From: Anaerolineae bacterium
GTDB lineage: Bacteria > Chloroflexota > Anaerolineae > Aggregatilineales > UBA3940
Length of the DNA stretch: 44,499 bases
Direction: 5' to 3'
Assembly (NCBI GenBank): GCA_016927375.1
Contig: JAFGMS010000157.1
Span: 1 to 44,499, forward strand
The position numbers and the translations under genes were made by a program. The notes beneath the pieces are model-generated. The model made no database searches and was not told the origin of the DNA. It was given only the letters and a program-made list of their open reading frames with translations. Shown in pieces: positions 1 to 39,960 of this stretch. Within the stretch, counting starts at the first letter, position 1. Every line of letters starts with the position of its first letter.

Positions 1-87
1 GCCAGATTAAGGCAATCTTCCCAACCGTATAAAGTACTTTGCATTGTACTTCTCGACTGGATACAGATTTCCGCCGCAAAGTACTAG
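1..87 (+). repeat. CTAG-bounded two-hairpin element, copy a (5' part cut by window edge)
   Basis: Aligns with about 8 differences to 25311-25398. Stem AGTACTTTGC (33-42) pairs with GCAAAGTACT (76-85). Ends TACTAG at 82-87. Confidence 0.8.
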
Positions 88-5550: not shown

Positions 5551-5637
5551 ATGCATCAACATTCAATGGATTGGCTATACGGCTACCGGTTTTCATAACA
5601 TTTTTGGTGAGAGCAATTGAAGGCCAAAACAAAGCTC

Positions 5638-5660
5638 TTAACTCATGCCTCTGGCCTCAT
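5638..5660 (+). repeat. 23-nt direct repeat, copy 1 (TTAACTCATGCCTCTGGCCTCAT)
   Basis: Identical 23-mer recurs at 8240-8262. Similarity extends to about 36 nt (5632-5667 vs 8233-8269). Confidence 0.85.
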
Positions 5661-5952
5661 GTTTGTTACACTTTCGTTACATTAGTTTCAAAAAAGATCG
5701 CAGAGCATTATGTTCGATCTATACTAGGAACTAGGAAGTCAATAAGAGGTGAGTCTGTTGTGCTGGGATGAAAACAATCATTAGGAAGCAACCATATTTC
5801 GACCTGAAATAGACAGCATTATTCTCTTCATCTATGCCCCAGTCTGCGACATCGATTGATAATATGACTATGATGATTAATTCCTTTGCTCCACTTCCTG
5901 AATAGGCTGGGGACTATCAGTGGGACACACACTTCGAAAGGATAATCTGGCC

Positions 5953-8109
5953 ATGACCACTGCAGAGCTATCCGTCTTCTTCAGGCCACGCGGTGTAGCT
6001 GTTATTGGCGCCTCGCGCGAACCGCAGAAACTGGGACACGGTGTTGTCCGCAATCTGCTGGAATACCGCTACAGCGGCCCCATCTATCCTGTTAACCCCA
6101 GGGCAGATGAGATCCTGGGTCTCAAGGTCTTCCCCTCAATAGCCGATGTACCCGACCCTGTTGACCTGGCCGTGATAGTCGTCCCGGCCAGATTGGTCGC
6201 ATCAGAGTTAGATGCCTGTGGCCAGCGCGGGATCAAAGGCGTCATCGTTGTCAGTGCCGGGTTCCGAGAGATCGGTCCTGAGGGAGAAGAGAAAGAGGCA
6301 GTTCTCAAGCAAATCGCAGAACAGTATAACATGCACCTGATTGGTCCGAACTGCATCGGCACCATAGATGGCCACACACCGCTGAATACCACTTTTGTCG
6401 TCGGAATGCCACGCCCCGGCGAAATCGCCTTTCTATCTCAATCGGGGGCGGTAGCGGCTGCTGTGATCGATTGGGCTCGAGGCTCAGGAGTGGGTTTCAG
6501 CCGCATTGTCAGCCTGGGTAACCAGGCCGGCGTGACCGAATCGCAGATGCTGGAAGCCATCGGTCAAGACGGCGTGACCCGTGTCATTGCAGCCTACATG
6601 GAGGGAGTTTCTGACGGATCGGAATTCCTGAAAGCAGCTACACGGACCGCCCTCCAGACACCGGTCGTAGTCCTGAAAGCCGGACGTGGGCAGAGTGGGG
6701 CAAGAGCTATCGCCAGTCACACCGGCGCATTGGCAGGCGATCATGTTGCCTATGAGGCTGCCTTCCGGCGCACCGGCGTTTTGCAGGCCCACACCACAGA
6801 GGAGCTGTTTGACTGGGCGCGCGCCTTGGCCTGGCAGCCGCTTCCACACGGCCGCCGGGTGGCAGTTCTGACCAACGCAGGAGGTGCCGCTATCCTGGCC
6901 GTCGATGCCATTGAAGAGGCAGGATTAGAACTCTCACCACTGACTGAAGACACAAAGACCTTCCTACGACAGCGCGTTTTTGCAGCGGCCAGTGTTAACA
7001 ATCCGGTGGATATATTGGCAGGTTCCGGCCCGGCAACTTATGCCTTATGCCTTGATGCCCTTCTGGGTGATGAGACTGTTGACGCCGTTGTCGTAATTCA
7101 AGCTCCTCAAGACTGGTTTGCTCCTATCAGCTTAGCCGAGGTCGTGGGTGAGGTCTCGACCAGCCAACTGGGGAGGCAGAAGCCTATCCTGGCCGTGATT
7201 ATGGGGTTGGCCTCAACCAGCGACGCCACTCAGGTCTTGCACCGGCGACGTGTTCCCAATTTCGCTTTCCCGGAACGTGTCGGCAGCACGCTGGCCGCGA
7301 TGTGGCAGCGCAAACAATGGCTCGATGCCCTACCCATAGAGTCTCAGCCTGTTGAGACGCCGGCTTGTGACCGCGAGATGGGCAAGATGACCATTGAAGC
7401 CGGGCTGGAGGTGCTTCGCCAGCGTGACGGCAAAGAGAGAGGCTGGATGTCCCCGGAGCAGGTCGATACACTATTGGCTGCCTACTGCATTCAAACGCCC
7501 AGCAGCGGCCTGGCCCCCAGTGTCGAACATGCCATCCCGTTAGCTGAAACAATGGGATATCCTGTCGCGCTCAAGCTGGCCGCCGAAGGAGTGGTGCATA
7601 AAACCGATGTAGGCGGTGTGGCACTCAATATCACTACATCCGGCCAGCTTAAGAGAACATTCAAGTCCCTGCGCAAACAGGCTTCCAGGTATATAGCGGA
7701 AGATGACATCAAGGGTATCTATGTGCAGGATATGATTCGAGGAGAAGCAGAACTCATCGTTGGGATTGTACGCGATCCGCAGTTCGGCCCCCTCGTGATG
7801 GTGGGAACAGGTGGTACGCAAGTCGAGATGAAGCGTGATGTAGCTTTTGAGTTGGCCCCCCTCACCCGCAAACAGGCAGAGAATATGCTTGATCGAACCA
7901 GATCCGGACACCTATTGGCCGGCTTCCGCGGCTCTCCGCCTGCGGATCGCCCGGCAGTCATCGATACCATCCTTCAACTGGCGCAGATTGCCCTGGACTT
8001 CCCTCAAATAACCGAGATTGAGATCAATCCGCTCATTGTTATGAAAGAAGGTGAAGGTGTACGAGCCGTCGATTCACGAGTAAGGCTCGACAAAAATGGC
8101 AGCCTATAG
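5953..8109 (+). CDS. ADP-forming acetyl-CoA synthetase (fused CoA-binding/ligase-CoA and ATP-grasp domains)
   Basis: N-terminus FFRPRGVAVIGASREPQKLGH (CoA-binding Rossmann), succinyl-CoA-synthetase-like middle with SHTGALAG, and a C-terminal ATP-grasp (GYPVALKL...HKTDVGGV). Confidence 0.85.
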   Translation: MTTAELSVFFRPRGVAVIGASREPQKLGHGVVRNLLEYRYSGPIYPVNPRADEILGLKVFPSIADVPDPVDLAVIVVPARLVASELDACGQRGIKGVIVVSAGFREIGPEGEEKEAVLKQIAEQYNMHLIGPNCIGTIDGHTPLNTTFVVGMPRPGEIAFLSQSGAVAAAVIDWARGSGVGFSRIVSLGNQAGVTESQMLEAIGQDGVTRVIAAYMEGVSDGSEFLKAATRTALQTPVVVLKAGRGQSGARAIASHTGALAGDHVAYEAAFRRTGVLQAHTTEELFDWARALAWQPLPHGRRVAVLTNAGGAAILAVDAIEEAGLELSPLTEDTKTFLRQRVFAAASVNNPVDILAGSGPATYALCLDALLGDETVDAVVVIQAPQDWFAPISLAEVVGEVSTSQLGRQKPILAVIMGLASTSDATQVLHRRRVPNFAFPERVGSTLAAMWQRKQWLDALPIESQPVETPACDREMGKMTIEAGLEVLRQRDGKERGWMSPEQVDTLLAAYCIQTPSSGLAPSVEHAIPLAETMGYPVALKLAAEGVVHKTDVGGVALNITTSGQLKRTFKSLRKQASRYIAEDDIKGIYVQDMIRGEAELIVGIVRDPQFGPLVMVGTGGTQVEMKRDVAFELAPLTRKQAENMLDRTRSGHLLAGFRGSPPADRPAVIDTILQLAQIALDFPQITEIEINPLIVMKEGEGVRAVDSRVRLDKNGSL

Positions 8110-8239
8110 CAGACGGCACCACCAGGAGGCGTTCCTGGTACCCATAAGCACTATGCTGGTGGTAAGTTTGCAGATATGCAAATCCGGCAAATAGGCAAGC
8201 AGGATGGGGTTATTGTCGAAGAGATACACGCCAGAGCTT

Positions 8240-8262
8240 TTAACTCATGCCTCTGGCCTCAT
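8240..8262 (+). repeat. 23-nt direct repeat, copy 2
   Basis: Identical to 5638-5660. Here embedded in the hairpin GCCAGAG...CTCTGGC. Confidence 0.85.
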
Positions 8263-8286
8263 TGCTGTTTTCGGAAAAGCTAAACC

Positions 8287-9147
8287 TCACAGCGGCTCCA
8301 GCTCCTGTTCGATCTGGGCATCGTAAGCCGCCCGCAGTGCCTTTGCCACCGGGCCCGGCTTCCCATCACCGATCACCACACCCCGCACCTGCACAATCGG
8401 CACAACGCCCCGAGAAGAACTGGTCAGCATTGCCTCAGAAATCCGGGGTAGATCGTCCATGTGAATCGGGTCTAAGACCGTCGGCAAAACAGAGGGGGCA
8501 ACTTCCAGAAGGATACTGCGAGCGATGCCTTCCAGCACGCCATCACCTGCCGTACGCAGCTCTCCATCCAGCACCGCGAAGAAATTGCTGCTCAGCCCTT
8601 CGAGGATCCAACCGGCACCGTCATACATCATAATCTCATAGACGCTGTAAGGATGGCGCATCCTGGCCTTCTTGCGCCACTCGATGAACTGTGAATCTTT
8701 GGCGCGTGGTACCTCACGTCTGCCCTCCACAAGACCAACACTGACCCCCTCCTGGTAGAGAGCCGCCGGCAGCGGCGTGAACGGCTCCAGAGCGATAAAA
8801 ACCGTCTCAGGTGCATCAAAGGGCACAGTCAGCCGGATACGTACCAGAGCAAGCCCGATCTCTTCCACCACGCGCCGCAGGACCAGACGCATCCAGTCAT
8901 ATGTCAGCAGAAAAGGCTCTCCGAGCAAGTCTGCTGAATGGCGCAGCCGTGCAAAATGACTGGCCAAACGAAAGACCCGCCATCCCGGGTAGAGACGAAA
9001 GACGGTATACACACCATGACCGTTTTGAAGCGCAGCCTCATCCAGACTATCCGCCTGAACAGGCACACGCTCCAACACTTCACCACAGGCTCGAAACATG
9101 CTAACCGATGACATACAGACCTCATCCACAGGACGCATCCTGAGCAA
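8287..9147 (-). CDS. class IV (fold-type IV) PLP-dependent aminotransferase family protein
   Basis: 286-aa ORF with the layout of BCAT/DAAT/ADC-lyase proteins (YTVFRLY..., ...EGLSSNFF..., GVLEGIAR, TSSSRGVVPI). Exact activity not assignable. Start uncertain. Confidence 0.65.
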   Translation of the reverse strand: MLRMRPVDEVCMSSVSMFRACGEVLERVPVQADSLDEAALQNGHGVYTVFRLYPGWRVFRLASHFARLRHSADLLGEPFLLTYDWMRLVLRRVVEEIGLALVRIRLTVPFDAPETVFIALEPFTPLPAALYQEGVSVGLVEGRREVPRAKDSQFIEWRKKARMRHPYSVYEIMMYDGAGWILEGLSSNFFAVLDGELRTAGDGVLEGIARSILLEVAPSVLPTVLDPIHMDDLPRISEAMLTSSSRGVVPIVQVRGVVIGDGKPGPVAKALRAAYDAQIEQELEPL

Positions 9148-16416: not shown

Positions 16417-16420
16417 TTTT

Positions 16421-16455
16421 TGGCTCTTAGCTGTTGGCTGTTAGCTGTCAGCTTC
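16421..16455. repeat. heptamer tandem array (TGGCTCT TAGCTGT TGGCTGT TAGCTGT CAGCTTC)
   Basis: Five 7-nt units between panD and the BatA-like gene. Reverse-complement type of the array at 39891-39960. A second heptamer type (CATTGCT CGTTGCT CGATCAG) lies at 16477-16497 inside the panD 3' end. Confidence 0.8.
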
Positions 16456-16899: not shown

Positions 16900-16923
16900 T
16901 TTTGATCCACGAATTCCACGAAG
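16900..16923. repeat. left arm of inverted repeat flanking the GxxExxY gene
   Basis: TTTTGATCCACGAATTCCACGAAG. The 12-nt perfect core GATCCACGAATT (16904-16915) is the reverse complement of 17347-17358. Confidence 0.75.
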
Positions 16924-16942
16924 AACACTAATTATGATAATT

Positions 16943-17314
16943 TCACAGGATAATACGTTTGAAACGCAGGCTGCTCTCGCCAAAGTTCATCAACAGTCCC
17001 AAACGAAGGCCGCTGGCTTTGAGGTAGGATAAAACCTGGGATTGATGAACTTTGGCCAGCGTGTCCACAGCTTTCAACTCAACCACAATCTTGGTATCTA
17101 TTACCAGATCGAGGTAGTAGTCTGCAACAACAAGCTCCTTGTAGATTATCTGGATATGTTGCTGAGAAACAAACGGAATATCCAGAATACTCAACTCCCC
17201 TTCCAGAGCAGCCTGATACACATTTTCAGAGAAACCAGGGCCAAGTATCTTGTGCACTTCCATGGCCGCTCCAACCACATTGTAGACCAGGTCTTTGTAC
17301 AGCAAGTCGGTCAA
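16943..17314 (-). CDS. GxxExxY family protein (PD-(D/E)XK nuclease-like fold family)
   Basis: GPGFSENVYQAALEGEL carries the GxxExxY signature, followed by ...DLVIDTKIVVELKA. 123 aa. TTG start. Lower GC than neighbours. Confidence 0.85.
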   Translation of the reverse strand: MTDLLYKDLVYNVVGAAMEVHKILGPGFSENVYQAALEGELSILDIPFVSQQHIQIIYKELVVADYYLDLVIDTKIVVELKAVDTLAKVHQSQVLSYLKASGLRLGLLMNFGESSLRFKRIIL

Positions 17315-17339
17315 GGTGAAATTCCTTTAATTTGTGCCA

Positions 17340-17363
17340 TTTGTGAAATTCGTGGATCGAAAA
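17340..17363. repeat. right arm of inverted repeat flanking the GxxExxY gene
   Basis: Reverse complement reads ATTTTTCGATCCACGAATTTCACAAA, matching 16900-16923 apart from 1 indel and 2 mismatches. Confidence 0.75.
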
Positions 17364-17364
17364 A

Positions 17365-18330
17365 TCACCGCACCACGCCTGCACGGCGGAGGGCGAACAG
17401 GATGACATCCTCCCAGGGTGTGCTGGTCTCCATGGCTACATAGTGCACATCACGCCCAAGGCAGTAAGAAGCCATCTCGCTGCGCCACTCACGCAGCCGG
17501 CGAGCATACAGATCGCGCATAGCACCATCCACGGTCACATCCTGGCCGGCCCCTGTCTCGCTGTCGATCAAGCGGATATCGCCCACCACCGCCGGTTCTA
17601 CTTCGTCGGGCGAAAGCAGATGCAGGATGGTCACCTCGTGGCCCCGGCCCTGCAATGCATTGAGCCCATCACGGTATCCGCCCGGCGAGAGCATATCACC
17701 GATCAGCAGCACCAGCCCGACCCGCCCACCACGCACGGCATAATCGGCCAGGGCCGCGTTGAGATCGGTCGTGCCGTCTGTTTGCAGATGCTCCATCCAG
17801 GTCAGCATCGAGAGCGTCTGCCCGCGCCCGCGCACAGGTCCCCAACGGTCAATCACCCGAGCACCGGCAAGCAGGCTCACCGAGACCCGGTCACCGGTCG
17901 TGAGGCCGATATGCGCCAGCGCCGCTGCCAGCCGCACGCCGTAGCGGAACTTGTGTACATCGACAACTGAGGCAGCCCGCCCCACCCCACCCATGCCATC
18001 GAGCGGCCAATTCATCGACTCGCTGGCATCGAGCAGAACATGAACGGTGAGATCCTCTTCTTCTTCCAGCAGCTTGATAAAGGGTTTCTCCAGACGCGCG
18101 TAGACATTCCAGTCGAGCCGCCGCAAGTCGTCGCCACGCGTGTAGTCACGATAGTCGGCAAACTCGATGGAGGTTCCCTTTTTTACCGATCTGCGCTCGC
18201 CCTTAACCGCCCCGGCACGAACCTTGTGGGCGATCAGGCGCAGCTGCTCCAGCTTGCGCAGTGTCGTTTCATCGAAAAGGCGCTCAGGCGGCATCAATTC
18301 CACCACAGAAAGTGATCGGTACACGGACAA
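17365..18330 (-). CDS. DUF58 domain protein (vWA-like, MoxR partner)
   Basis: Family motif GTSIEFADYRDYTRGDDLRRLDWNVYAR plus the MIDAS-like VLLDASESM. TTG start at 18330 (GTG at 18324 also possible). Confidence 0.85.
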   Translation of the reverse strand: MSVYRSLSVVELMPPERLFDETTLRKLEQLRLIAHKVRAGAVKGERRSVKKGTSIEFADYRDYTRGDDLRRLDWNVYARLEKPFIKLLEEEEDLTVHVLLDASESMNWPLDGMGGVGRAASVVDVHKFRYGVRLAAALAHIGLTTGDRVSVSLLAGARVIDRWGPVRGRGQTLSMLTWMEHLQTDGTTDLNAALADYAVRGGRVGLVLLIGDMLSPGGYRDGLNALQGRGHEVTILHLLSPDEVEPAVVGDIRLIDSETGAGQDVTVDGAMRDLYARRLREWRSEMASYCLGRDVHYVAMETSTPWEDVILFALRRAGVVR

Positions 18331-18442
18331 AAAAACTTCTCGATCTTTTCAAAAAAACTTCTCGATCTTTTTCGAAAAACATTTCGATGTTTTTTCCAAC
18401 ACATCTCGATGTATCTACTTCAGGATATGCCCACAGCTCGAT
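18328..18442 (-). repeat. 22-nt phased tandem repeat array overlapping the DUF58 start codon
   Basis: On the minus strand, ATCGAG/ATCGAA-initiated units (e.g. ATCGAGAAGTTTTTTTGAAAAG). The + strand CGAT ends fall at 18344, 18366, 18388 and 18410 (exact 22-nt phase) and 18442 (32 nt). Confidence 0.85.
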
Positions 18443-22555: not shown

Positions 22556-24076
22556 TTAGTCTCCTGCAGCCAGAATAGTGTCTACTTGATAGTATTCGGC
22601 CATACATTCGTTGACCCAATGATAGGATGTATCTGACTCGCTCGTCATTGTATTTAGGTCGAGCAAAGAGTACATATCAACTGGTATCGGGGGAATTACA
22701 ACATCTCTATTCCCGGACATCCGCTCTGAAAGGATGACACTCTGTCCTCTATCCCATGCTTCTGCAAACGTTCGAAATGTCACCATTCTATCTAGCGAGA
22801 CTAGGCTGTCATAGATTGGCACAATCAACGCAACCAGTCCAAGAAACGGGAGAACTACTTTCCAGGCTCGACGTGTGACAAGCGACACATGTGTCAGGGA
22901 CATAGCTGCAAGTATTCCCCACGTTACCATCATCATCACTAAAACAGTCGTGGGCACCAGCAACGCTCGATAAGGCGGATAAAACGACATAAAGTAGAAG
23001 CTTGGAAACTTGACTGCCCAAATCAACACCAACCCCATAGCACCCGTCACCGCGAAACCTCTCATGATGTTTCGAGGAGCAAGCAAACCCTGAGACGGCA
23101 GGTTAACATGAACGACGAGAGATGTAAGCGCAAAGAGACCAGGTAAAGCAAAAACGGCCAGACGACTATACCCAAATGGGATAAATGCCAGGGAATCGAT
23201 AATTCTCTCGTAGATTGAGACATCCTGAGGAAAAGCGGATAATCTTACCGAATTACCTGGTGACATTCTCTGAACGAAAAGTGCAACAATCGAACTAAAG
23301 AACCCCGCTATCAGTAGAAAAATGAGAGTTCGTCGCTGATGAACCGATGGTAGAGCTATCAGTACCAGCAAAGCTATACCCAATGTCATGACTTGAAAAA
23401 CAACGTACGTCTCAGCGAATCCTCCAAGGAAAAAGTTAATGATCATACTAGAGGCGACCACAAGCACCGGCGCAGAGCCAGAAAAACCACGTCTATAGGC
23501 AAAAAGAACACTGCCAATCCATAAAGTAAAAACAATCATAGGAAATACGTAATTGGCTAGACTGCCTATCCAATATAGTGATTGAATTCTGTTAGGTGAT
23601 GCCGCGAATATACAGTAAGTGACAACAACTCCAATAGAGACGGCAGCCAATAGTGGATTCTCTAGTCGAGACATGAAAGCCAGCTGATAAAGCACCCACA
23701 CAATCGCTAGGAGCCATAGTGTGAATGCAACACAGACCAAGATCCAGATCGATGAATATTCAATCTGTGCTGCCAAACCATATATAAACGTCGCAGAATA
23801 CCGTCCTCCCCAACTCTGATATTGAACTAGAACATTGCTTAGCAAACCATTAGTGCGAGCTGAACTGGCAAAACAGAAATCGTCAGCTACAAAGCGCATA
23901 TACTGACTGTTATAGCCCCAAACCAAGAACGCAGGCGCGAAACACAAGATAATGACCCCCATCACTACCAGGCTCTGTGTACGAGAGTTCGCCAGACTTG
24001 GTAACCACTTCGCGCAACACATATTAGCTTGGCCACCCGCATTCTGTTTTTCGTTCCCATCTATCATCCGGAACAT
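22556..24076 (-). CDS. polytopic membrane protein, GT-C-like glycosyltransferase candidate, in a low-GC island
   Basis: About 12 predicted TM helices. An acidic motif RFVADDF sits just after TM1 (GT-C proteins carry a DxD/DDx there). The start is more likely the ATG at 24067, 9 nt after AGGAG. Confidence 0.55.
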   Translation of the reverse strand: MFRMIDGNEKQNAGGQANMCCAKWLPSLANSRTQSLVVMGVIILCFAPAFLVWGYNSQYMRFVADDFCFASSARTNGLLSNVLVQYQSWGGRYSATFIYGLAAQIEYSSIWILVCVAFTLWLLAIVWVLYQLAFMSRLENPLLAAVSIGVVVTYCIFAASPNRIQSLYWIGSLANYVFPMIVFTLWIGSVLFAYRRGFSGSAPVLVVASSMIINFFLGGFAETYVVFQVMTLGIALLVLIALPSVHQRRTLIFLLIAGFFSSIVALFVQRMSPGNSVRLSAFPQDVSIYERIIDSLAFIPFGYSRLAVFALPGLFALTSLVVHVNLPSQGLLAPRNIMRGFAVTGAMGLVLIWAVKFPSFYFMSFYPPYRALLVPTTVLVMMMVTWGILAAMSLTHVSLVTRRAWKVVLPFLGLVALIVPIYDSLVSLDRMVTFRTFAEAWDRGQSVILSERMSGNRDVVIPPIPVDMYSLLDLNTMTSESDTSYHWVNECMAEYYQVDTILAAGD

Positions 24077-25213: not shown

Positions 25214-25253
25214 AGTGCCGTCCTTGGCAGAGGGACGGCACTACAATCTTTTT
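25214..25253 (+). terminator. 10-bp GC-rich hairpin followed by a T-run, in + orientation only
   Basis: AGTGCCGTCC (25214-25223) pairs with GGACGGCACT (25233-25242), followed by ACAATCTTTTT. No + strand gene lies upstream, so its role is unclear. Confidence 0.3.
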
Positions 25254-25282: not shown

Positions 25283-25398
25283 CTAGTAAAGTTGGGCATA
25301 AGCTCATCGCCAGCTTAAGGCAATCTTCCCAACTGTATAAAGTGCTTTGCGCTGCACTTCTCAACTGGATACAGATTTCCGCCGCAAAGTACTACTAG
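25283..25398 (+). repeat. CTAG-bounded two-hairpin element, copy b
   Basis: Starts CTAGTAAAGTTGGGC and ends GCAAAGTACTACTAG. Stem 2 is AGTGCTTTGCG (25341-25351) / CGCAAAGTACT (25383-25393). Confidence 0.85.
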
Positions 25399-26345
25399 GA
25401 CACAATACCCTTAGTAGCCCGCATAAAGACCGACTCCAGGTCGCGTGTCTCCTCAGTAAAATGCATCACAGGTACGCCAGCGTTTACCAATGTTGCCAAT
25501 AGCCCACTGACTGCCTGATCATCCCCGAGAAGGCTGACATGTAGCTTGCTGCGACCATTCTCCGGCTTAAGCTCATCTACCGCTTCAATCCCCGTGGCAG
25601 AGAGCAGCACTTGTTGGGCCTGCTCGATATCACCAAGCAACGTAATGATGATCTCCCGATGAGGGACAAGCTTGCGCTGCATCTCCTCAAGACCACCCTC
25701 CATGACCAGCTCACCCGCCTCGATGATGCCCACCTGTGTGCAAATCTCCGCTACATCGGCCAAAATATGCGTCGAAAAGAAGACTGTTTTCCCCATATTC
25801 GCCAACTCAACTAGTAGTTGACGAATCTCAACACGGGCACGCGGGTCAAGGCCAGAGGCCGGCTCGTCGAGAATAAGCACCTGTGGGTCATGTGCCAGGG
25901 TACGCGCCAGGCAGAGGCGCTGCTTCATGCCCCGTGAGAGGCTATCCACCATGTCATCGGCACGGTGCGTCAAATCAACCAACTCCAGCAGGTCACGAAT
26001 CAACGCTGGGCGGTCTGCCTCTGGAATATCGTAGCAGGCAGCAAAGAAGTCTAAGTATTCCCAGACCTTCATGTCATCATACACGCCGAAGAAATCAGGC
26101 ATGTAGCCGATCATACGGCGTACGTCACGCGGCTGTCTGGTGACCGAATAGCCGGCCACCCAAGCCTCACCCGCCGTCGGTGCAAGCAATGTGGTCAGAA
26201 TATGCATAGTGGTCGTCTTGCCGGCACCATTCGGCCCGACAAAACCATAAATCGCCCCTTCTTCAACCTGAAGGGTCAGATCCTTGACCGCCACCACCTT
26301 CTTAAACCGCTTGGTAAGGCCTTTGATCTCAATAATAGCTGCCAT
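25395..26345 (-). CDS. ABC transporter ATP-binding protein
   Basis: Walker A GPNGAGKTT, signature LSRGMKQRL, Walker B VLILDEPASGLD, H-loop STHIL, plus a C-terminal accessory domain. Confidence 0.92.
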   Translation of the reverse strand: MAAIIEIKGLTKRFKKVVAVKDLTLQVEEGAIYGFVGPNGAGKTTTMHILTTLLAPTAGEAWVAGYSVTRQPRDVRRMIGYMPDFFGVYDDMKVWEYLDFFAACYDIPEADRPALIRDLLELVDLTHRADDMVDSLSRGMKQRLCLARTLAHDPQVLILDEPASGLDPRARVEIRQLLVELANMGKTVFFSTHILADVAEICTQVGIIEAGELVMEGGLEEMQRKLVPHREIIITLLGDIEQAQQVLLSATGIEAVDELKPENGRSKLHVSLLGDDQAVSGLLATLVNAGVPVMHFTEETRDLESVFMRATKGIVS

Positions 26346-30701: not shown

Positions 30702-32489
30702 CTAAGGCTCAGGCATCATCACCGGTATAGCCTCAACGATAACAAAGTTCTCAACAGTGACAGCCGATGGGCAGCTCACTTGACTGACTGGAACCCATCC
30801 CAGTTCCTGATGCTCAGCTATACTCCATACCTGCAGCCATTGGCCATCAGATGTACGTCCCCCCACAGCAATCTGTGGAGGCTCTACGAGCACAACCGAC
30901 GTCGGTTTGGCATCTGTAGCAGGCAGCGGAAAGATCTCAGCATTATCGCCCAACGTACAGATTACCGGCCGGATCGCCACCGCTGTAGTACTGGAACGCT
31001 CCACATGATCGGTTCCGGCGATGGTCAACGTGTACTCATGCCTATCCCAGCCAAATTCACTAACCAGCCACCCAAGAGGAACCACCAGGCGACCAGTACT
31101 CCAGTTTTCAGGAGCGATAGGCAGTTCCTGGCCAGTTATGCTGCTCAGGAGAGCATATTCTGCAACATCAGAGGGACTCTCCACCTGCCATGAGAACACC
31201 ACATTACCAATCATGCCAAAGCCTGCCTCGGCAGGTTGAGCCCGGAATTCGATGATGCTCACCACTGGCGTTGGGATGACGGTTGGAGAAGGAATTAGCG
31301 CCGGTGTCCATGTTGGAGTCGTTGTAACTGTCAGTGCAGCTGATTCGGTTCCCGCTGGCTCAAGGAAAGCAAGAGGCAAAACGCCTGTGAAGATCAACCC
31401 GGCAATCAGGATCAGCGTTGCCAAACCGCCAACCAGTATCAAGGGCAGGCTTAGTCCTGCCAACCAGGCAGGCCAGGAAGGCATAATTGTATACCTGGCT
31501 AGCAAAGGAGCCTGATAGCCCGCCTTATCCAGTGATCGCGCGACTATCGCGAAATTGACCTGGCGAGCACGCCCGAAAGGACGCCTCTTAGCCGAACGTA
31601 CTCCCAATTCAACTTGGGCCGTTTGTCCTGGCTCAAGATGCAAACGGGAAGAACTGAATTTGTAGTGCAACAGCTTCTCGCGCTGATAACCTTCAAGGCA
31701 AAGCCCAATGGACATGTTTCCTTGATTTTGTATGGCCAGATGATAGTGTCCGGCTCGTTTTCCCTCGTGGGCAGCCATCGCGATCCCAGCGAAACCTGCT
31801 ATCTCTATCTCGCGTGTTGCCTCAATATACTGTCCAGGGTCGCTCTTGATGGTTACTCTTATAGTCAATGGATACAGGCCGGGACGCGTTGTGATGTTGC
31901 GTGGGGGACGGATCGAGAACATGACTTCTGTTTGCTCATTGGGCTCAAGATGCACCTCTCGTCGATTGCTCTTGACCCACTCAGAATCCATACCGCCTGT
32001 CTCGACGGTAAAAACATAGTCATCCTTGCCTCGGTTTTGGATAACCATGACCAACTGTGCATGAGAACCTGGTGCAACGGGCTGCTGTGGATCGTCAACA
32101 ACAAGGCTCATCGGCACACGAGGATCTTCAAACACGGTCATGCTGGGAGCCAGGCTGGCCTCGATATCGATTGACCTGAAATGGGTTGTGGGTATGTGAA
32201 AGATCAGCTGCACATCGCCCATCATAATGACATCACCATCCGTCAGAGGGTGACGGCTGTTCGGCTCGATTTGTCGATCATTGACAAACGTACCATTGAC
32301 GGTACCTAAATCAACGAGAAAGACATTACCCTCGGCCACATCAAACTGGGCATGATAGCGTGACACAGCCGACGTGTTGAGCACGATGTCATTGCCAGGT
32401 TGACGCCCTATCGACGTCGTAGGCTTAGTCAGTTCGACCTCGCCAAATGCGCTGCCTTCGCCGAGAATCGTGAGCTTGCCAAAAGCCAT
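30702..32489 (-). CDS. FHA-domain membrane protein with beta-sandwich repeats and SH3b-like C-terminus
   Basis: FHA motifs TSIGRQPGNDIVLNTSAVSRYHAQF and GTVNGTFVN. Start taken at MAFGKLTIL (32489); the tracked ORF extends to 32603. One TM region near aa 330-370 counted from that start. Confidence 0.85.
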   Translation of the reverse strand: MAFGKLTILGEGSAFGEVELTKPTTSIGRQPGNDIVLNTSAVSRYHAQFDVAEGNVFLVDLGTVNGTFVNDRQIEPNSRHPLTDGDVIMMGDVQLIFHIPTTHFRSIDIEASLAPSMTVFEDPRVPMSLVVDDPQQPVAPGSHAQLVMVIQNRGKDDYVFTVETGGMDSEWVKSNRREVHLEPNEQTEVMFSIRPPRNITTRPGLYPLTIRVTIKSDPGQYIEATREIEIAGFAGIAMAAHEGKRAGHYHLAIQNQGNMSIGLCLEGYQREKLLHYKFSSSRLHLEPGQTAQVELGVRSAKRRPFGRARQVNFAIVARSLDKAGYQAPLLARYTIMPSWPAWLAGLSLPLILVGGLATLILIAGLIFTGVLPLAFLEPAGTESAALTVTTTPTWTPALIPSPTVIPTPVVSIIEFRAQPAEAGFGMIGNVVFSWQVESPSDVAEYALLSSITGQELPIAPENWSTGRLVVPLGWLVSEFGWDRHEYTLTIAGTDHVERSSTTAVAIRPVICTLGDNAEIFPLPATDAKPTSVVLVEPPQIAVGGRTSDGQWLQVWSIAEHQELGWVPVSQVSCPSAVTVENFVIVEAIPVMMPEP

Positions 32490-32674
32490 CAGATCGCTCT
32501 CCAGGGCGTTAGAGTTGAATATCAACAACAACTCCCAGTCTAACACGGAGCAGGATCGGGTACAAGTGGAGAGACTGTCCTCAAATATGGCGAAACAGAG
32601 CACCGAACAAAGGATAAACCATCATAAATGCGCTACAATACAGGCGCGTCTGTACCCAACAAATTGCAAATTGC

Positions 32675-32776
32675 CTAGTACAGTTGGGCTTAAATAGCCC
32701 CAGAGTTAAGATGCGCTTCTTGCCAACTGTTTAAGTATTTCGGGGCAAGCCATAACTTTAGGCCCCGAAATACTAG
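32675..32776 (+). repeat. CTAG-bounded two-hairpin element, copy c
   Basis: Stem 1 is CAGTTGGGC (32681-32689) / GCCAACTG (32722-32729). Stem 2 is AGTATTTCGGGG (32734-32745) / CCCCGAAATACT (32763-32774). CTAG at both ends. Confidence 0.85.
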
Positions 32777-32877
32777 TGCAGCAGAGAGCCTCATAGTCTG
32801 AATACTAGACCCAAAGCATGCTTATCTCTGCGTGACCCATTCACATCATCTGTTTCGTTTATGCACTAGAGGATTTT

Positions 32878-33635: not shown

Positions 33636-34061
33636 TCAGAAGCCATAGGCCGCCAGAAAGCTAACCCGGGCTGTCTCACTGGAAGCAGACAAAATGAATA
33701 CCCAATCGCCATTACCCCAGGCAGCATGGTACTCACTACCATAATTGAAAAGTGTGCCATCTCGCTGACCCAGGGCCGGATCCTGACCGATAATAGTAGC
33801 ATTTTGCGGCAATACACTGAGAGCATGCTCGATGTTCTCCCGCCCCACCTGCCTGAGACGAAGCAAGACATAATCATCTGCCGTTTGATAGGTTGCGACC
33901 TGCAAACTGTTACCGGGCTCGAACACAGGGCCGCTGGTGCGCAGGAATTCACCCGTATTGGGCGGAAAAAGCTGCTCCAGCGGCACATCCATCTCAACAC
34001 AGCTGGCTAGTACTACCAGCAAACCTAAAAAAAGAACAGAGAGTGCAATTTTTCTCCCCAT
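33636..34061 (-). CDS. small lipoprotein, function unknown
   Basis: Signal peptide with lipobox VVLASC. 141 aa. No recognisable family motif. Confidence 0.55.
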   Translation of the reverse strand: MGRKIALSVLFLGLLVVLASCVEMDVPLEQLFPPNTGEFLRTSGPVFEPGNSLQVATYQTADDYVLLRLRQVGRENIEHALSVLPQNATIIGQDPALGQRDGTLFNYGSEYHAAWGNGDWVFILSASSETARVSFLAAYGF

Positions 34062-34877: not shown

Positions 34878-34990
34878 CTAGTGCAGTTGGGCATAAATAG
34901 ACCCAGGGTTAAGAGACACATCTTGCCCAACGGCTTAAGTATTTCGGGACAAGCCATAACTATGGGTTTACTTACGCCCCGAAATACTAG
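34878..34990 (+). repeat. CTAG-bounded two-hairpin element, copy d
   Basis: Reads CTAGTGCAGTTGGGC...GCCCAACGG...AGTATTTCGGGA...CCCCGAAATACTAG. Preceded by the heptamers CATTGCT CATTGCT (34860-34873). Confidence 0.85.
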
Positions 34991-39890: not shown

Positions 39891-39960
39891 AGTTTACAGT
39901 TCACAGTCAAAAGCTAACAGCTAAAAGCTAACAGCTGAGAGCTGAGAACTGAGCAGTTAC
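39891..39960. repeat. heptamer tandem array, 10 units
   Basis: AGTTTAC AGTTCAC AGTCAAA AGCTAAC AGCTAAA AGCTAAC AGCTGAG AGCTGAG AACTGAG CAGTTAC. Confidence 0.85.

Follow-up and report, generated by a model that had tools for sequence, protein, structure and literature searches.

A CTAG-bounded repeat in an Anaerolineae contig is very probably a MITE of IS630-family descent with a co-varying hairpin at each end

We examined a 44,499-nucleotide contig of an Anaerolineae bacterium (hereafter called the window), which contains four copies of a short repeat bounded by CTAG, and conclude that this repeat is very probably a non-autonomous MITE descended from an insertion sequence (IS) of the IS630 family, which is of Tc1/mariner type. 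The element is composed of two terminal inverted repeats (TIRs) of about 35 bp that are joined by a centre of about 25 nt. Each half forms a local hairpin of its own, in which the outermost 11-13 nt of the terminus are paired with a short inner arm, such that the inner blocks of the TIR make up the loop. A previous reading of this DNA that relied on its letters only (the sequence-only reading) had reported four + strand copies of a two-hairpin repeat, and all four were confirmed by site reads and alignment. Their positions, along with those of the elements that can be distinguished in copy c, are given in Table 1. The copies fall into two subfamilies, with copies a and b sharing 92% identity and copies c and d sharing about 80%, and the length of the element ranges from 102 to 116 bp across copies. 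The bounds that had been described for complete copies, CTAGT at the left and TACTAG at the right, hold in general; the exception is copy b, which ends with GTAC-TA-CTAG and is consequently 3 nt longer there than the other copies.

Table 1. Positions in the window of the repeat copies, the features of copy c and an adjoining remnant
Feature	Position	Strand	Description
Copy a (subfamily 1)	1..87	+	Left part cut by window start; element end C84, TA 85-86, flanking G 87
Copy b (subfamily 1)	25283..25398	+	Element 25286-25392; flanking TA 25284-25285 and 25393-25394
Copy c (subfamily 2)	32675..32776	+	102 bp from CTAG to CTAG; element 32678-32773; TA 32676-32677 and 32774-32775
Copy d (subfamily 2)	34878..34990	+	113 bp; element 34881-34987; TA 34879-34880 and 34988-34989
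Left terminal inverted repeat, copy c	32678..32711	+	34 nt, GTACAGTTGGGCTTAAATAGCCCCAGAGTTAAGA; equals the IS630-family TIRs of L002 and L023 at 25/34
Hairpin 1, copy c	32680..32730	+	Arms ACAGTTGGGC (32680-32689) and GCCAACTGT (32722-32730); one bulged G; loop is the inner left TIR
Hairpin 2, copy c	32734..32774	+	Arms AGTATTTCGGGGC (32734-32746) and GCCCCGAAATACT (32762-32774); 13 perfect pairs; z = -7.2
Remnant, 36 nt, CTAG-bounded	32773..32808	+	CTAGTGCAGCAGAGAGCCTCATAGTCTGAATACTAG; element-like termini GTGCAG...GAATAC; left TA common with copy c

Within the window, the left-end motif CTAGTNNAGTTGGGC has three exact matches, and when up to two mismatches are allowed it has five, as compared to 0.74 expected; a count of five was reached in none of 100 shuffles. 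The right-end motif has six matches, versus 0.42 expected. A covariance model that was built on five copies and run over the whole window with filters off returned no further full copy of the element. The run also flagged the remnant that abuts copy c, which reads CTAGTGCAG...GAATACTAG and is probably a second copy with an internal deletion. No transposase gene was found in the window by tblastn using the L002 transposase described below as the query.

The origin of the repeat is indicated by its ends. A metagenome scan with the left-end pattern yielded two kinds of match, namely true copies of the repeat (in L004 and L007) and a full-length IS (in L002); the matches in L001, L003, L005 and L006 consist of the short left-end pattern only and were rejected as family members. 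The L002 IS is about 1.33 kb in length, with the ends CTAGTACAGTTGGGCGTAAAT... and ...GCGCCGCACTGTACTAG, and contains two overlapping ORFs that match DDE_3 (4e-24) and HTH_32 (4e-12) as well as HTH_23, a domain make-up that makes the predicted product an IS630-family transposase. This transposase has about 8000 relatives at E<=1e-30, one of which is named from a Caldilineaceae genome. The plasmid-borne relatives listed (12 matches), which are 54-65% identical to it, all come from cyanobacteria, and one of them carries the annotation 'IS630 family transposase'. Two related ISs were then retrieved at many sites, one carrying P0119 (L013-L022) and the other P0088 (L023-L030). At 13 different sites, eight for one IS and five for the other, CTAG stands on either side of the insertion, and the TIRs of these two ISs, which are about 35 bp in length, have the four blocks GTACAG, GGC, TAAATA and AGGGTTAA in common. 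When the first 34 nt of the subfamily 2 left end are compared to the TIRs of L002 and L023 without gaps, 25 of 34 positions agree, including 16-18 of the first 20, versus only 7-9 of 34 for the IS located in L004. The left end of copy b agrees with the L002 and L023 TIRs at 17-19 of 34 positions (5-8 for the L004 IS), and the right end of the MITE shows a modest agreement of 15-21 of 34 (7-15 for the L004 IS). As its ends are homologous to IS630-type TIRs, the element is essentially two such repeats with a short centre, i.e. a MITE. An IS with matching TIRs had been proposed as something to look for by the sequence-only reading, and the L002 IS answers to that description, although both it and the L023 IS are from metagenome samples other than the window's own.

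The IS in L004 (positions 66-1272) is a second member of the IS630 family, whose insertion site is the TA in the left CTAG of a MITE. It has a different TIR (GTCCTCAGTCA) and an A-run frameshift site, and its transposase is about 30% identical at the protein level to that of L002. It was rejected as a partner of the repeat because its TIR is unrelated to the MITE ends (5-15/34).

The intact copies of the repeat and the 13 IS sites are all flanked in the manner C-TA-[G...C]-TA-G, with the exception of copy b, whose right-hand TA is followed by C. Members of the IS630 family use TA as their insertion target and duplicate it (PMC2170065), and IS630 itself prefers a TA within 5'-CTAG-3', as stated in the title of the work by Tenzen and Ohtsubo (1991) that is cited in PMC2170065. 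The CTAG ends are best read as the product of a TA duplication within a CTAG target, as opposed to a 4-bp duplication of the IS5 type; it is the transposase family that favors the former, as the sequence of the element alone fits both. Since the first base of the element is G and the last is C, its insertion would rebuild CTAG on both sides, and for copy b the target appears to have been C-TA-C (CTAC), located just after the ABC gene's own TAG. Insertion at the TA of CTAG would explain why the repeat is bounded as CTAG...CTAG, why a TAG stop is kept when a C|TAG stop is hit, and why new copies land beside old ones at junctions that contain a single TA. Adjoining elements with a single TA in common are present in the MITE pairs of L007 and L031, the IS-MITE pair of L004, and the remnant and copy c of the window, and in L033 two copies are 15 nt apart. 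The proposal in the sequence-only reading that CTAG is the insertion target thus gains support from the related ISs, which have CTAG on both sides at each of their 13 sites.

Metagenome contigs from five datasets other than that of the window (SRR13394437) contain 10 further copies that are complete or nearly so; they comprise the L004, L007 and L011 finds and eight from contigs that were fetched via protein matches. The second, partial copy with which L007 ends is additional to them. When subfamily 2 is translated two frames are open, and a peptide search returned six database 'proteins' that run through copies of the element, the contigs of five of which were fetched. ORFs called through the element (L031 2531-3010; P0206-P0211), which include a spurious N-terminal extension of an RsfS protein, are an annotation artefact. 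Contig breaks occur inside copies in L008 (same strain; inside copy c), L011 and L007, and the window itself starts inside copy a, as a multi-copy repeat breaks assemblies. The left-end pattern had no match in the contigs of GTDB representative genomes, and the protein search of these genomes returned no relative of the window's FHA-domain protein, which implies that the host lineage is not among them. A scan of viral contigs likewise gave no match, and copy c had no blastn match in the plasmid collection. Exact look-ups of two proteins predicted from window ORFs returned no entry, probably owing to different start codons.

Evidence for mobility is provided by relatives of the window. At site b, the interval that follows the ABC ATPase stop lacks the element in three relatives (L009, L011 and L012), a judgment made at the level of the interval, as the FHA proteins of these relatives are 73% (L009) and 66% (L011, L012) identical to that of the window. 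The comparison of filled and empty sites that had been suggested earlier therefore succeeded for the interval, whereas an exact empty site was not found among these relatives at 66-73% identity. Together with the IS630-type ends and the 10 additional copies, the empty interval bears out the earlier view that the repeat is mobile and of MITE type. In L011 and L012 the site b interval retains a downstream hairpin and ribosome-binding site. In the window this hairpin (25215-25241) lies in the gap that separates the ABC ATPase gene from the one next to it, where the minus strand reads GTGCCGTCC-N9-GGACGGCAC and then AAGGAGG, i.e. a hairpin with a 9-bp stem and a sequence resembling a ribosome-binding site. 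It is kept in both relatives with one loop change, the surrounding intergenic DNA having diverged, and it may be a cis-regulatory element. At site c, the element is missing from the region upstream of the FHA gene in L009, and an extra gene occupies this position in L011. At site d, L011 contains a diverged copy (CTCG for CTAG) that is 33 nt from the start of its ortholog of gene 33636-34061; copy d is 816 nt from the start of that gene, placing the two in the same neighbourhood at different sites. As their positions are about 0.8 kb apart, the L011 copy does not show copy d to be ancestral. The presence of a diverged copy in this neighbourhood nevertheless implies that some copies may be old.

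The copies within each multi-copy contig all have the same orientation (four and the remnant in the window, three in L031, two in L033 and two in L007). The probability of this concordance is about 1/128 if the copies are independent, and about 1/16, which is not significant, if adjacent copies are treated as one. The GC skew, as read on the top strand of the element, is negative for both the window and the syntenic L011 and about 0 for L031, the other contigs being too short. Head-to-tail neighbours may be the survivors of a larger set, since head-to-head copies would form long unstable palindromes.

The window has a G+C content of 54% and a GC skew that is negative throughout, and it contains no tRNA genes or Rfam matches. 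Homologs of its FHA-domain protein (30702-32603, minus) are named from Anaerolineae or Chloroflexi metagenome-assembled genomes, and the closest non-identical relative is at 73% identity. Copies a and b are located directly at the stop codons of minus-strand genes, which encode a response regulator (84-455) and an ABC ATPase (25395-26345), respectively. Specifically, the terminal CTAG of copy a (84-87) provides the TAG stop of the response-regulator gene, and the CTAG that follows the right-hand TA of copy b contains the TAG stop of the ABC ATPase gene (25395-25397). Copies c and d reside in divergent intergenic regions, copy c between the FHA gene and a GNAT gene. Orientation relative to the flanking genes is mixed, as copies a and b of the window and the copy in L032 are antisense and those in L031 and L033 are sense. 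No palindromic tetramer is more under-represented in the window than CTAG (41 observed versus 79 expected from a Markov model), and 8 of the 41 sites are element boundaries. A low-GC block on the minus strand (22556-24076; 0.466 versus 0.54), which encodes a DUF6056 protein, contains 7 of the 41 CTAG sites, none of which is occupied by the element; the block may be recently acquired DNA.

Each copy of the repeat folds better than its shuffles, and does so about equally on both strands, with z scores of about -4 for full copies c and d. The MITE halves fold at z = -2.7, -6.0, -0.9 and -7.2, whereas the ends of the ISs fold no better than their shuffles (z = +0.4, +1.05, -0.9 and -1.1). The two stems of the sequence-only reading are present in an alignment of 13 copies, in which standard pairs occupy 92.9% of the cells, as compared to 26-43% when the partners are slid by 1-3 columns; they are not uniformly perfect, as stem 1 of copy c contains a one-base bulge. 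Copy d has a single mismatch in each stem, A.G in stem 1 and A.C in stem 2, and in hairpin 2 of copy c the 3' arm is formed by the right terminus and the T of the flanking TA. The covariation score of the 13 copies is 0.126, versus 0.077 in shuffles, and was reached in none of 500 of these. The test is conservative, as copy b is out of register in the MAFFT alignment that it used. The compensatory changes that had been noted between subfamilies are likewise substantiated by an in-register table, which reveals five base-pair positions with changes on both sides: position 3 of stem 1 (A-T and G-C, with G.T intermediates) and positions 4 (A-T and G-C), 5 (C-G and T-A), 8 (T-A and C-G) and 10 (C-G and G-C) of stem 2. 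These double changes distinguish at least three lineages. The right terminus forms the series GTACAGTGCGGC (the IS), GTACTTTGCGGC, GTRTTTCGCGGC and GTATTTCGGGGC, along which the inner arm changes with the terminus. In subfamily 2, 7 of 48 stem sites are variable versus 20 of 55 loop sites (p = 0.014), and for the inner arms alone the number is 4 of 24, which is not significant.

The hairpins, which the parent-type ISs lack, have been maintained in the lineage of the MITE. The inner arm of stem 1 overlies the transposase codons for QGK (CAGGGCAAG) with 3 extra nt, the MITE stretch being CAGTTGGGCAAG, and these codons are conserved in nearly all of the 120 relatives listed. The absence of hairpins from the IS ends and the location of the inner arm over the QGK codons imply that the hairpins were elaborated after the MITE arose, from a weak GGGC/GCCC proto-pairing. 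Similarly, the inner arms are missing from full-length ISs and change in step with the termini, which indicates that the hairpins were built and kept within the MITE lineage. We also considered that the element could be two mini-MITEs in tandem, and rejected this possibility: of a TIR, the inner arms include no more than the outer 10-13 nt, without the terminal GT, and no TA precedes them.

Co-varying stems would also be expected of a structured-RNA family, i.e. a cis-regulatory element or small RNA whose repeats are gene copies as opposed to insertions, which the sequence-only reading had held out as its other option. The stability of the hairpins (z of about -4 for full copies c and d, down to about -7 for the hairpin-2 halves) fits this explanation, as does the location of copies a and b right after stops, a position from which a hairpin could shield the 3' end of an mRNA. 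However, an RNA would be expected to favor one strand, and both strands of the repeat fold about equally well. In support of + strand RNA it had been argued that one substitution yields a G-U pair on that strand only; this argument fails, as the single stem mismatches of individual copies are G.T on the + strand in five cases and A.C, equivalent to G.U on the minus strand, in six, a pattern that indicates no strand preference and is that of unselected transitions. In addition, no Rfam match was obtained at the gathering threshold or at E<=1, promoter and terminator signals are not above chance, the orientation relative to genes is mixed, and the ends are homologous to IS630-family TIRs and have TA/CTAG flanks. 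We consider a structured RNA to be very unlikely.

Two other routes to a mobile repeat can be envisioned, both of which we regard as extremely improbable. In one, the repeat is a MITE of the IS5 group that duplicates a whole 4-bp CTAG target, a link that had been drawn from the CTAG bounds on both sides; for an element that starts with G and ends with C, such a duplication looks the same as a TA duplication within CTAG. It is the coding content of the full-length elements that decides against this link, as the only ones with matching ends encode IS630-family DDE_3 and HTH domains (HTH_23/HTH_32), not the IS5-type DDE_Tnp_1, and no IS5-type partner with matching ends was among the full-length elements found. 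Moreover, the TA followed by C to the right of copy b requires no mutation under the TA model and one under the 4-bp model. In the other route, the repeat is a REP/PATE-like hairpin element whose movement as single-stranded DNA depends on a Y1 transposase (RAYT or IS200/IS605 TnpA), which would recognize subterminal hairpins and a CTAG-like cleavage motif. The element does have two subterminal hairpins, its copies within each multi-copy contig point in one direction, and the GC skew of the window is uniformly negative, but the orientation concordance drops to the non-significant value given above when adjacent copies are counted once, and the relation to GC skew fails in L031. In addition, the ends are homologous over about 34 nt to IS630-family TIRs, and no Y1 transposase was seen among the window ORFs in a scan that was not exhaustive.

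For a MITE of IS630-family descent, mobilisation is expected to occur in trans, through steps that we take from established knowledge of this family. Briefly, a DDE transposase of IS630 type, supplied from elsewhere in the genome, would bind both ends via its helix-turn-helix domains, excise the element and paste it into a TA, preferably one within CTAG, and repair would then duplicate the TA. By analogy with ISY100 (PMC2170065), the transposase binding sites would correspond to the hairpin loops, which are formed by the inner inverted repeats. As for what gave rise to the hairpins, we judge selection acting on the small element to be somewhat more likely than 'palindrome correction' by template switching, which is non-selective, because lineages with diverged loops have kept their stems. 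Selection could have favored propagation of a very short, stiff substrate, or tolerance of the element when it is transcribed in either orientation. Hairpins are not known to be required for IS630-type transposition.

A stronger proposal is that the end-proximal hairpins are functional instead of a by-product, either because mobilisation needs them or because the host has adopted them as modules; we find this doubtful. With regard to mobilisation, an element of about 110 bp could be too stiff for its ends to be joined, and an IS630-type transposase might then need hairpins that are extruded or single-stranded. If true, this would be a structure-dependent step of a sort not known in this cut-and-paste family, and it might explain why the copies within a contig have the same orientation. 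With regard to the host, the hairpins could be used at C|TAG stops as mRNA-stabilising or insulating modules that work independently of orientation.

Several other repeats were noticed in the window. A 47-nt inverted repeat that is 77% complementary (16900-16946 / 17316-17362) exactly brackets an ORF on the minus strand (16943-17314), which encodes a PD-(D/E)XK nuclease family protein (PF13366, E = 1.7e-38); the bracketed ORF may be a small cassette or another mobile unit. At 18328-18393 there are three tandem 22-nt units (CAAAAAAACTTCTCGATCTTTT), two of which are identical and one of which is at 73%, that overlap a 43-nt palindrome; they begin at the start codon of a DUF58 gene (17365-18330, minus) and extend upstream. 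Heptamer-like AGCTGTT/AGCTAAC runs are present in inverted orientation in two intergenic regions (16417-16454 and 39906-39947), and the relative L009 has a CAGTTTT run after its ABC gene (6640-6700). A 38-nt direct repeat that is 87% identical (5630-5667 / 8232-8269) has one unit about 250 nt before ORF 5920-8109 and the other spanning the start of ORF 8247-8633, and may be a promoter or leader motif common to both ORFs.

The IS630-family reading accounts for the repeat, its CTAG bounds and its position at stop codons by a mechanism that is already known. In practical terms, the element breaks assemblies and gives rise to spurious ORF calls in metagenomes of Anaerolineae. An IS of the L002 type is the candidate autonomous partner, and it can be sought in the host through the ends GTRCAGTTGGGC.../...GAAATAC. 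The local hairpins, moreover, constitute a compact system in which to ask if the success of very short elements of Tc1/mariner type is influenced by the structure of their DNA or RNA.

Several families of small repeats invite comparison to the element. In BOX, as in RUP, Correia and ERIC, one TIR is paired with the other, and neither Correia nor ERIC is known to have an established cognate IS. Among known elements, the one most similar to the window element is RUP, a 107-bp MITE of Streptococcus pneumoniae that is proposed to be mobilised by IS630-Spn1 (PMC2229807, PMC3049150). Like the window element, RUP is about 107 bp in length and non-coding, has IS630-like TIRs, inserts at TA, and occurs in many intergenic copies that are often located beside other ISs or repeats (PMC2229807, PMC3049150). 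However, the two TIRs of RUP pair in one duplex (PMC3049150), whereas the window element forms two local co-varying hairpins; it also has a probable Anaerolineae host, no detectable sequence relation to RUP, and a target that is strictly CTAG. Correia/NEMIS of Neisseria, ERIC, and Stowaway of plants are likewise small, TA-flanked inverted repeats, whose transcripts form stable stem-loops that in some cases affect mRNA processing or stability (PMC2229807, PMC10969869), but they form one long hairpin by TIR-TIR pairing. REP/BIME sequences with RAYT resemble the element in being short intergenic palindromes with many copies; REPs are single palindromes of 20-40 nt that are tied to Y1 transposases (PMC2817692, PMC3733652), in contrast to the window element with its TA flanks and TIRs of about 35 bp that are homologous to an IS630-family IS. 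The autonomous IS630/Tc1-mariner elements IS630 of Shigella sonnei and ISY100 of Synechocystis have the same HTH and DDE_3 composition as the parent-type ISs described here, which also have TA-flanked inverted repeats and the CTAG preference that a title cited in PMC2170065 ascribes to IS630; the window element differs in that it is without a transposase, is 102-116 bp long, and carries inner arms that are absent from full-length ISs. No paper combining IS630, MITEs and Chloroflexi was found in the collection searched. The repeat is thus an element of a known kind, unusual only in that each of its ends has a co-varying hairpin of its own.
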